From a virus (taxonomy: Duplodnaviria > Heunggongvirae > Uroviricota > Caudoviricetes): a stretch of DNA of 6,403 nucleotides. Below, in pieces: positions 5,145-5,207 of this stretch. Positions within the stretch are counted from its first letter, which is position 1. Each line of letters opens with the position of its first letter. Made by a program: the position numbers and the translations under genes. The stretch lies in the IMG/VR virus record IMGVR_UViG_2636416140_000005, one strand, 5' to 3'. Under the pieces are notes generated by a model that made no database searches, had not been told where the DNA came from, and saw nothing but the letters and a program-made list of their open reading frames with translations.

Positions 5145-5166
5145 AAACATAGCAACGGCTATGTTT
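5145..5166 (-). promoter_or_regulatory. MntR operator: perfect inverted repeat AAACATAGC-N4-GCTATGTTT
   Basis: 22-bp palindrome 33-54 nt upstream of the sitA ATG, with perfect 9-bp arms. Matches the MntR box architecture known from enterobacterial mntH/sitA promoters. Confidence 0.6.
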
Positions 5167-5193
5167 TATAGCATAACCTATACAAAATGAAAA
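5165..5193 (-). promoter_or_regulatory. Putative sigma70 promoter of sitABCD (-35 TTTTCA at 5193-5188, 17-nt spacer, -10 TATAAA at 5170-5165)
   Basis: Hexamers read from the - strand. The -35 overlaps the Fur box and the -10 and predicted start site overlap the MntR palindrome, which fits repression by both. Hexamer choice is inference. Confidence 0.3.
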
Positions 5194-5207
5194 TAATTAT
5201 CATTAAC
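5189..5207 (-). promoter_or_regulatory. Fur box (- strand reads GTTAATGATAATTATTTTC; 16/19 to GATAATGATAATCATTATC)
   Basis: 19-mer 77-95 nt upstream of the sitA ATG, counted by eye against the Fur consensus. Overlaps the proposed -35 element. Confidence 0.65.

Follow-up and report, generated by a model that had tools for sequence, protein, structure and literature searches.

Control of the sit metal importer by both Fur and MntR is textbook knowledge for Salmonella and Shigella, and the Fur box of phage-borne sit has been in print since 2020. In reviews on the subject, manganese-loaded MntR is described as a repressor of mntH and of sitABCD, with Fur acting as well and with cross-talk between the metals, and for the repression of sit these reviews cite Ikeda et al. 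2005 (J Bacteriol 187:912) for Salmonella and Runyen-Janecky et al. 2006 for Shigella flexneri, which bears out the enterobacterial precedent that a preliminary description of the DNA studied here had invoked. A Salmonella sitA-lacZ fusion responded to deletion of fur and of mntR, and depended on RpoS only in the presence of Fur or MntR. For the plasmid pS88, sit was reported to be induced in urine, serum and iron-depleted LB, the induction of sitA being about 18-fold in one test condition and as high as 84-fold in others, with a value of 776-fold in the table's last column.

With regards to phages, Mathieu et al. 2020 (PMC6969025) found sitABCD in 70% of their lambda isolates and reported a Fur box on lambda-borne sit, which they took to mean that the operon is integrated into the Fur regulon of its host. 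That paper makes no mention of MntR, and its Supplementary Fig. 7 displays the Fur box as well as the distal box and the palindrome that are discussed below. The sit genes of prophage Perceval were furthermore expressed above the prophage background in an LF82 lysogen (PMC9928086). Among other genes of manganese homeostasis, mntH is described in a review as having separate sites for each of MntR, Fur and OxyR, and MntS has been proposed to derive from the signal peptide of SitA.

The window studied here, meaning the whole stretch of 6403 nucleotides of viral DNA that was analysed, carries a sit operon on its minus strand, followed at higher coordinates by an integrase gene:

sitA, 5112 to 4198, minus strand: periplasmic metal-binding protein of the Pfam ZnuA family, annotated as sitA in RefSeq relatives
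sitB, 4198 to 3371, minus strand: downstream part of the operon under the sitA promoter
sitC, 3374 to 2517, minus strand: downstream part of the operon under the sitA promoter
sitD, 2520 to 1663, minus strand: downstream part of the operon under the sitA promoter
tyrosine integrase gene, 5545–6309, minus strand: flank of sit at high coordinates

The low-coordinate flank consists of two plus-strand ORFs, one without any Pfam match and the other of DUF4376; in a near-identical relative, RefSeq annotates their counterparts as tail-fibre and DUF4376 proteins, respectively. Between sitA and the integrase gene lies a gap of 432 nt (5113–5544, 33% GC), which holds both operator motifs that had been proposed. 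No intrinsic terminator was detected 3′ of sitD (1463–1662), before the convergent DUF4376 gene, and the lambda attP core was searched for and found to be absent.

That the operon is phage-borne, as had been claimed, was well supported by its tail-fibre and integrase flanks, by its 99.7% identity over 1701–6186 to a 44.5-kb IMG/VR viral contig and by the likeness to isolated lambda-like phages, with the cassette from about 1643 to about 5303 being present at 98% identity in Lambda_2E9, ev207, 1H12 and Perceval. In Lambda_2E9, sit occupies the same place in the same orientation, between the tail-fibre genes and int. The cassette has the layout of a phage moron, being placed between the tail-fibre/DUF4376 genes and the integrase gene on the opposite strand, with a putative promoter of its own. 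Over 6–5339, the window and a prophage remnant of E. coli CFSAN029787 were also 99.7% identical, and the sit cassette was 97–98% identical on many E. coli plasmids, including NC_007675, which we take to be a ColV plasmid. The boundaries at about 1643 and about 5303 were common to plasmids and chromosomes.

A stop closes the integrase frame (5545–6403) right at the window's end, and the first start codon of the frame gives a protein of 254 aa only, with the catalytic domain (Pfam Phage_integrase) at residues 48–234 and the N-terminal DNA-binding part apparently missing. Since the integrase thus looks N-terminally truncated, this copy of the prophage is possibly defective. The exact SitA protein was found, in the indexed assemblies, in contigs of less than 10 kb only, which suggests assemblies bounded by repeats or IS elements. 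An A/G-rich repeat at 5322–5339 (ggcaaaaaaggggcaaaaaaagag) differs in length from that of close relatives, which have about 13–30 additional bases, and the BLAST alignment to these relatives breaks at the repeat.

The features of the control region upstream of sitA, as we read them, are the following:

proximal MntR operator, 5145–5166, no strand assigned: AAACATAGC-AACG-GCTATGTTT, a perfect 9-4-9 inverted repeat at −54 to −33 from the ATG
Fur box, 5189–5207, minus strand: GTTAATGATAATTATTTTC, matching 16/19 of the consensus GATAATGATAATCATTATC, at −95 to −77 from the ATG and about −49 to −31 from the predicted start
second overlapping Fur-like 19-mer, 5183–5201, plus strand: CAAAATGAAAATAATTATC, matching 15/19, offset by 6 bp toward sitA
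distal degenerate MntR-like box, 5164–5185, no strand assigned: core at 5168–5181, ATAGG-TTAT-GCTAT on the sense strand (9/10), covering the predicted −10
predicted −35 hexamer, 5188–5193, minus strand: TTTTCA, 4/6 by our own count, with a 17-nt spacer to the −10
predicted extended −10, 5165–5173, minus strand: TGcTATAAA (TGCTATAAA), analogous to the TATAAT at the box junction of K-12 mntS/rybA

Two of these had been named before, the Fur box and the perfect N4 palindrome, and for both the coordinates and the match were as claimed, the Fur box on the sense strand of sitA and the palindrome with 9-bp arms and an exact MntR pattern. Because sitA runs on the minus strand, from 5112 to 4198, both sites lie upstream of it, within the 33–95 nt that had been stated. 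The two arms of the palindrome are 100% complementary and identical to those of the MntR site of E. coli K-12 mntH. A scan with an MntR weight matrix had also been proposed, and using a matrix built from five K-12 sites at mntH, mntS and mntP, none of them from sit, we found that 5145–5166 was the top hit in the window with 24.7 bits, the reference sites themselves scoring 18.7–28.2. Among 200 shuffles of the whole window, the MntR pattern within three mismatches had any match in two, and in 5000 dinucleotide shuffles of 5113–5544 the exact pattern never occurred, while any perfect 9-4-9 palindrome was seen in 23. The exact 22-mer was present in 11 IMG/VR contigs, of which 10 were sit loci that had already been identified and the eleventh had it at the contig end.

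The Fur site was judged by the 19-mer, 7-1-7 and hexamer readings, because a weight matrix from K-12 sites collected by consensus would have been circular. On the plus strand, 5189–5207 matches the Fur consensus at only 15/19, compared with 16/19 on the sense strand of sitA. Counted by eye, TGATAAT-T-ATTTTCA (5188–5202) within the Fur box region has 13/14 of the 7-1-7 motif. Taken together, the two Fur registers (5183–5207) resemble the hexamer arrays of Fur, with about four hexamers.

Considering the sequence together with its orthologues, we infer that the sitA promoter combines the weak −35 with the extended −10, starts near 5158 and gives a leader of about 45 nt. Equivalent hexamers and spacing were found in several sitA orthologues when their upstream regions were read by eye, and in these the spacer of the distal box often ends in T, whereby the TGn motif arises. 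A scan for the sigma-70 consensus missed this proposed promoter, since its −10 ends in A and not in T. The scan instead called TTGCCA/TAAAGT (5326 to 5299), a candidate that we discounted, being unconserved and at the edge of the conserved cassette. No FNR box, looked for because of the reported anaerobic repression of sit, matched within the core promoter, and the window-wide count of such matches was at chance level.

Counted from the predicted start, the Fur array would occupy about −49 to −25 and the perfect palindrome about −8 to +14, with the distal MntR-like box at −27 to −6. The promoter overlap that had been proposed was therefore correct in part, with the Fur box lying on the likely −35 and the palindrome most likely on the start predicted at about 5158, whereas the palindrome shares only 2 nt with the extended −10. 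The earlier reading overlooked the second MntR-like box, which would cover the −10 in place of the perfect palindrome.

We consider it very probable that sit is here under dual repression, with host Fe-Fur acting at the −35 array, host Mn-MntR at the tandem boxes, and either of the two being able to shut the operon. Host Fur loaded with Fe2+ would bind the hexamer array at 5183–5207, thereby masking the −35 and excluding RNA polymerase. Host MntR loaded with Mn2+ would bind the perfect palindrome at 5145–5166, spanning the start site, and also, probably cooperatively, the weaker box at 5164–5185 across the −10. One repressor should be enough for shut-off, so that full expression would require low iron as well as low manganese, as might be met in the interior of host tissue or under oxidative stress. 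What the analysis shows is the motifs themselves, how far they exceed chance and that they are conserved, and from these we infer the promoter elements, the start site, the occupancy and the cooperativity in this scheme. MntR is encoded by a chromosomal gene in K-12 and no regulator gene was evident among the ORFs of the window; with Fur and MntR being encoded by the host and not by the phage, the cassette would fit into host metal homeostasis at any landing site. The repression by Fe2+-Fur and Mn2+-MntR that the preliminary description had predicted thus looks well founded, judged from motif strength, the arms identical to those of mntH, the positions in orthologues and the sit literature. 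Its further proposal, that the operon is wired into host metal regulation, is likewise supported and had for the Fur box already been drawn by Mathieu et al. 2020 (PMC6969025).

It could be argued that MntR alone acts directly, with the Fur-like box being mainly an AT-rich −35 or UP-element and the control by iron being weak, indirect or mediated by MntR-Fe. Tandem MntR boxes without a Fur box do occur in Pantoea and in some Erwinia orthologues, and the cross-talk described in reviews, in which MntR responds to iron and Fur to manganese, would also suit such a scheme. We nevertheless find it improbable for the window, because a Fur match with no more than three mismatches arose in only one of the 5000 dinucleotide shuffles of 5113–5544, and none of the 200 whole-window shuffles reached the Fur match level, while most other alleles have GATAATCATTTTC with 17/19 by our own count. 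The Fur box was also retained in all intact E. coli chromosomal, phage and plasmid alleles and keeps a constant position in many Enterobacteriaceae, with Fur-like boxes (six mismatches or fewer) being found at −99 to −90 in 12 of 20 Enterobacterales sitA orthologues and at the matching position in the sit promoters of Salmonella, Citrobacter, Klebsiella, Raoultella, Enterobacter, Shimwellia, Atlantibacter and Phytobacter. Iron depletion, moreover, strongly induces sitA, and Fur represses sitA in Salmonella. In the same comparison of 20 orthologues those of Pantoea had no Fur box, which makes the Fur input lineage-specific, and for promoters of the Pantoea type direct control by MntR only is possible.

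Another reading is that the palindrome works as RNA, since a 9-bp hairpin with a U-rich tract on the sitA strand could serve as a leader attenuator, as a 5′ stabilising stem-loop or as a terminator, which might for instance stop read-through out of the integrase gene. A terminator scan indeed flagged 5166 to 5145 on the minus strand, and the isolated 33-nt palindrome RNA folded at −9.4 kcal/mol (z = −4.95). However, with the start predicted near 5158 the left arm would not be transcribed, and the remaining leader folded no better than its shuffles (z = +0.58). It is also the sequence of the ATAGC/GCTAT arms, not mere pairing, that is kept across genera and at the unrelated genes mntH, mntS and mntP, whereas the imperfect copies (ATAGG, ATAGT, GCTAA) disrupt the pairing of the stem. 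The stem has three G-C pairs only, and an Rfam scan of 5000–5600 gave no hit. We thus hold a function as RNA to be very improbable, even more so than control by MntR alone. That both motifs should be chance matches without any regulatory role is hardly credible, for although the region has 33% GC and short AT-rich consensus sequences readily match such DNA, composition-matched shuffles almost never gave either motif, and both are phylogenetically conserved within otherwise unalignable promoters.

Returning to the MntR side of the proposed dual repression, the proximal and distal boxes are separated by exactly 19 bp from centre to centre, with the proximal core at −50 and the distal at −69. The distal box scored 12.4 bits with the MntR matrix, which is below the weakest K-12 reference (18.7) and similar to an unrelated hit in the integrase gene (11.7), so that it is its position and its orthologues, and not its score, that make it credible. 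A pair of ATAGC-N4-GCTAT cores spaced by exactly 19 bp, at a similar distance from the ATG, was found in all 20 Enterobacterales sitA homologues (L001–L020), the upstream regions of which are otherwise unalignable between species, compared with none of 3459 control windows taken from the same loci and tested for the same 19-bp tandem. The tandem is also present at K-12 mntS/rybA (L114, 759–791). We propose tentatively, with somewhat less than even confidence, that the sit operator is a tandem MntR pair at fixed 19-bp spacing, this being an ancestral Enterobacterales design kept at mntS, in which the strong box nucleates cooperative binding at the weaker box that overlaps the −10. If true, the 19-bp tandem at mntS would lend support at promoter level to the proposed descent of mntS from sitA. 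The searchable literature, with the primary sit promoter papers being outside its reach, contained nothing relevant on tandem or multiple MntR boxes or on the operator sequence. The conserved 19-bp tandem geometry and its link to mntS are the only angle of this analysis that is mildly new.

With regards to the distribution of the promoter, a 214-bp segment is present in 2349 of the 5426 complete E. coli genomes that were searched, its copies being at 1680 places on chromosomes and at 990 on plasmids. The promoter of the window was 100% identical to that of E. coli CFSAN029787 over the 214 bp, and identical over 203 aligned nt to that of one IMG/VR contig. Aligning 17 alleles, we found strong divergence upstream of the Fur box, together with an almost invariant Fur core and an almost invariant stretch from the distal box to the ATG; the Fur and MntR boxes were kept in every intact E. 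coli chromosomal, ColV-plasmid and IMG/VR phage allele. Since within E. coli the whole leader, and nearly all of the sequence between about −60 and the ATG, does not vary, the invariance of the palindrome there is weak evidence for an operator, and it is the comparison across genera that carries weight.

The E. coli alleles vary within this control region. In ColV-type plasmid alleles (L110, L111), the proximal core has one mismatch (ATAGT) and the distal core is perfect (ATAGC-TTCT-GCTAT), whereas in chromosomal and phage alleles it is, the other way round, the proximal core that is perfect and the distal core that has one mismatch. It is as if one strong box of the MntR pair suffices, and the reciprocal pattern would fit selection on the pair and not on either box. 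The same ColV-type alleles also lack 2 nt between their Fur box and their distal box. On the sense strand, position 5195 is T in the window and C in most chromosomal and phage alleles (GATAATTATTTTC versus GATAATCATTTTC), which accounts for the Fur match of 16/19 here as compared with 17/19, by our own count, in the common allele; the T variant is shared with CFSAN029787, the IMG/VR locus L082 and ColV plasmids.

On the chromosome of E. coli AF4 (L113), an IS5 lies in the sit promoter at the spacer of the distal box (equivalent to about 5180 onward). Everything upstream of that spacer has given way to the IS5, so that the −35 and the entire Fur box are gone while the −10 and the perfect MntR palindrome remain, from which a loss of control by Fur is predicted.

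Other phage-borne sit-like operons in IMG/VR, those with more distant SitA homologues (53–63%), have different motifs upstream. The L094 homologue has an 18/19 Fur box at −54, those of L097 and L100 have a TTAGG-TATG-CCTAA palindrome upstream, and that of L105 has the upstream motif ATTGCAATTGCAAT. It may be general that metal importers carried as cargo bring along operators that are matched to the regulators of their own hosts.

In the case of sit, an importer of metals that is widespread and associated with virulence brings its operator region along on chromosomes, on ColV-type plasmids and in lambda-like phages, and because it does so, new hosts that possess Fur and MntR should regulate it correctly at once. 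These observations are of use for annotation and give a worked example of how cargo genes join host regulons; they open no new question.

Comparing the locus, finally, with the known systems, among the closest are the sit cassettes of lambda-like coliphages, which like that of the window lie between tail-fibre genes and an integrase gene on the opposite strand, with 98% identity over 1643–5303. The alleles of Mathieu et al. 2020 have GATAATCATTTTC where the window has GATAATTATTTTC. The window further differs from these cassettes in having an apparently truncated integrase gene directly upstream of its sit promoter region.

The sit operons of Salmonella enterica serovar Typhimurium and Shigella flexneri are orthologous and answer to the same two repressors as proposed for sit of the window, with Salmonella SitA being about 75% identical to SitA of the window. 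In S. enterica subsp. arizonae and Citrobacter, the Fur box is at about −99 and the cores are at −72 and −53, giving the same order as in the window of Fur box, MntR box or boxes and ATG. The proximal box of Salmonella reads TAACATAGC...GCTATATTC, whereas that of the window has fully consensus 9-bp arms. With regards to genomic location, the Salmonella sit operon adjoins SPI-1 and that of the window lies in a prophage b-region.

K-12 mntH encodes an importer of Mn2+ and carries AAACATAGC-AAAG-GCTATGTTT, thus with the same arms as in the window, having a Fur-like GATAATCATTCTC just upstream. This operator was reportedly defined by Patzer and Hantke in 2001. Unlike sit of the window, mntH is a core chromosomal gene for an NRAMP transporter, with a single full MntR box and an OxyR input. 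The upstream regions of K-12 mntS and mntP have two ATAGC-N4-GCTAT cores each, and those of mntS/rybA are, as at sit of the window, 19 bp apart with a −10 (TATAAT) at the box junction. The mntS/rybA RNA has its annotated 5′ end within the spacer of the proximal box, a geometry that matches the predicted start in the window. No Fur-like box was noticed at mntS. The mntS gene is unlike sit in coding for a protein of 42 aa and in having its strong and weak boxes differently arranged, and the 19-bp tandem common to sit and mntS is consistent with the proposed descent of mntS from sitA.
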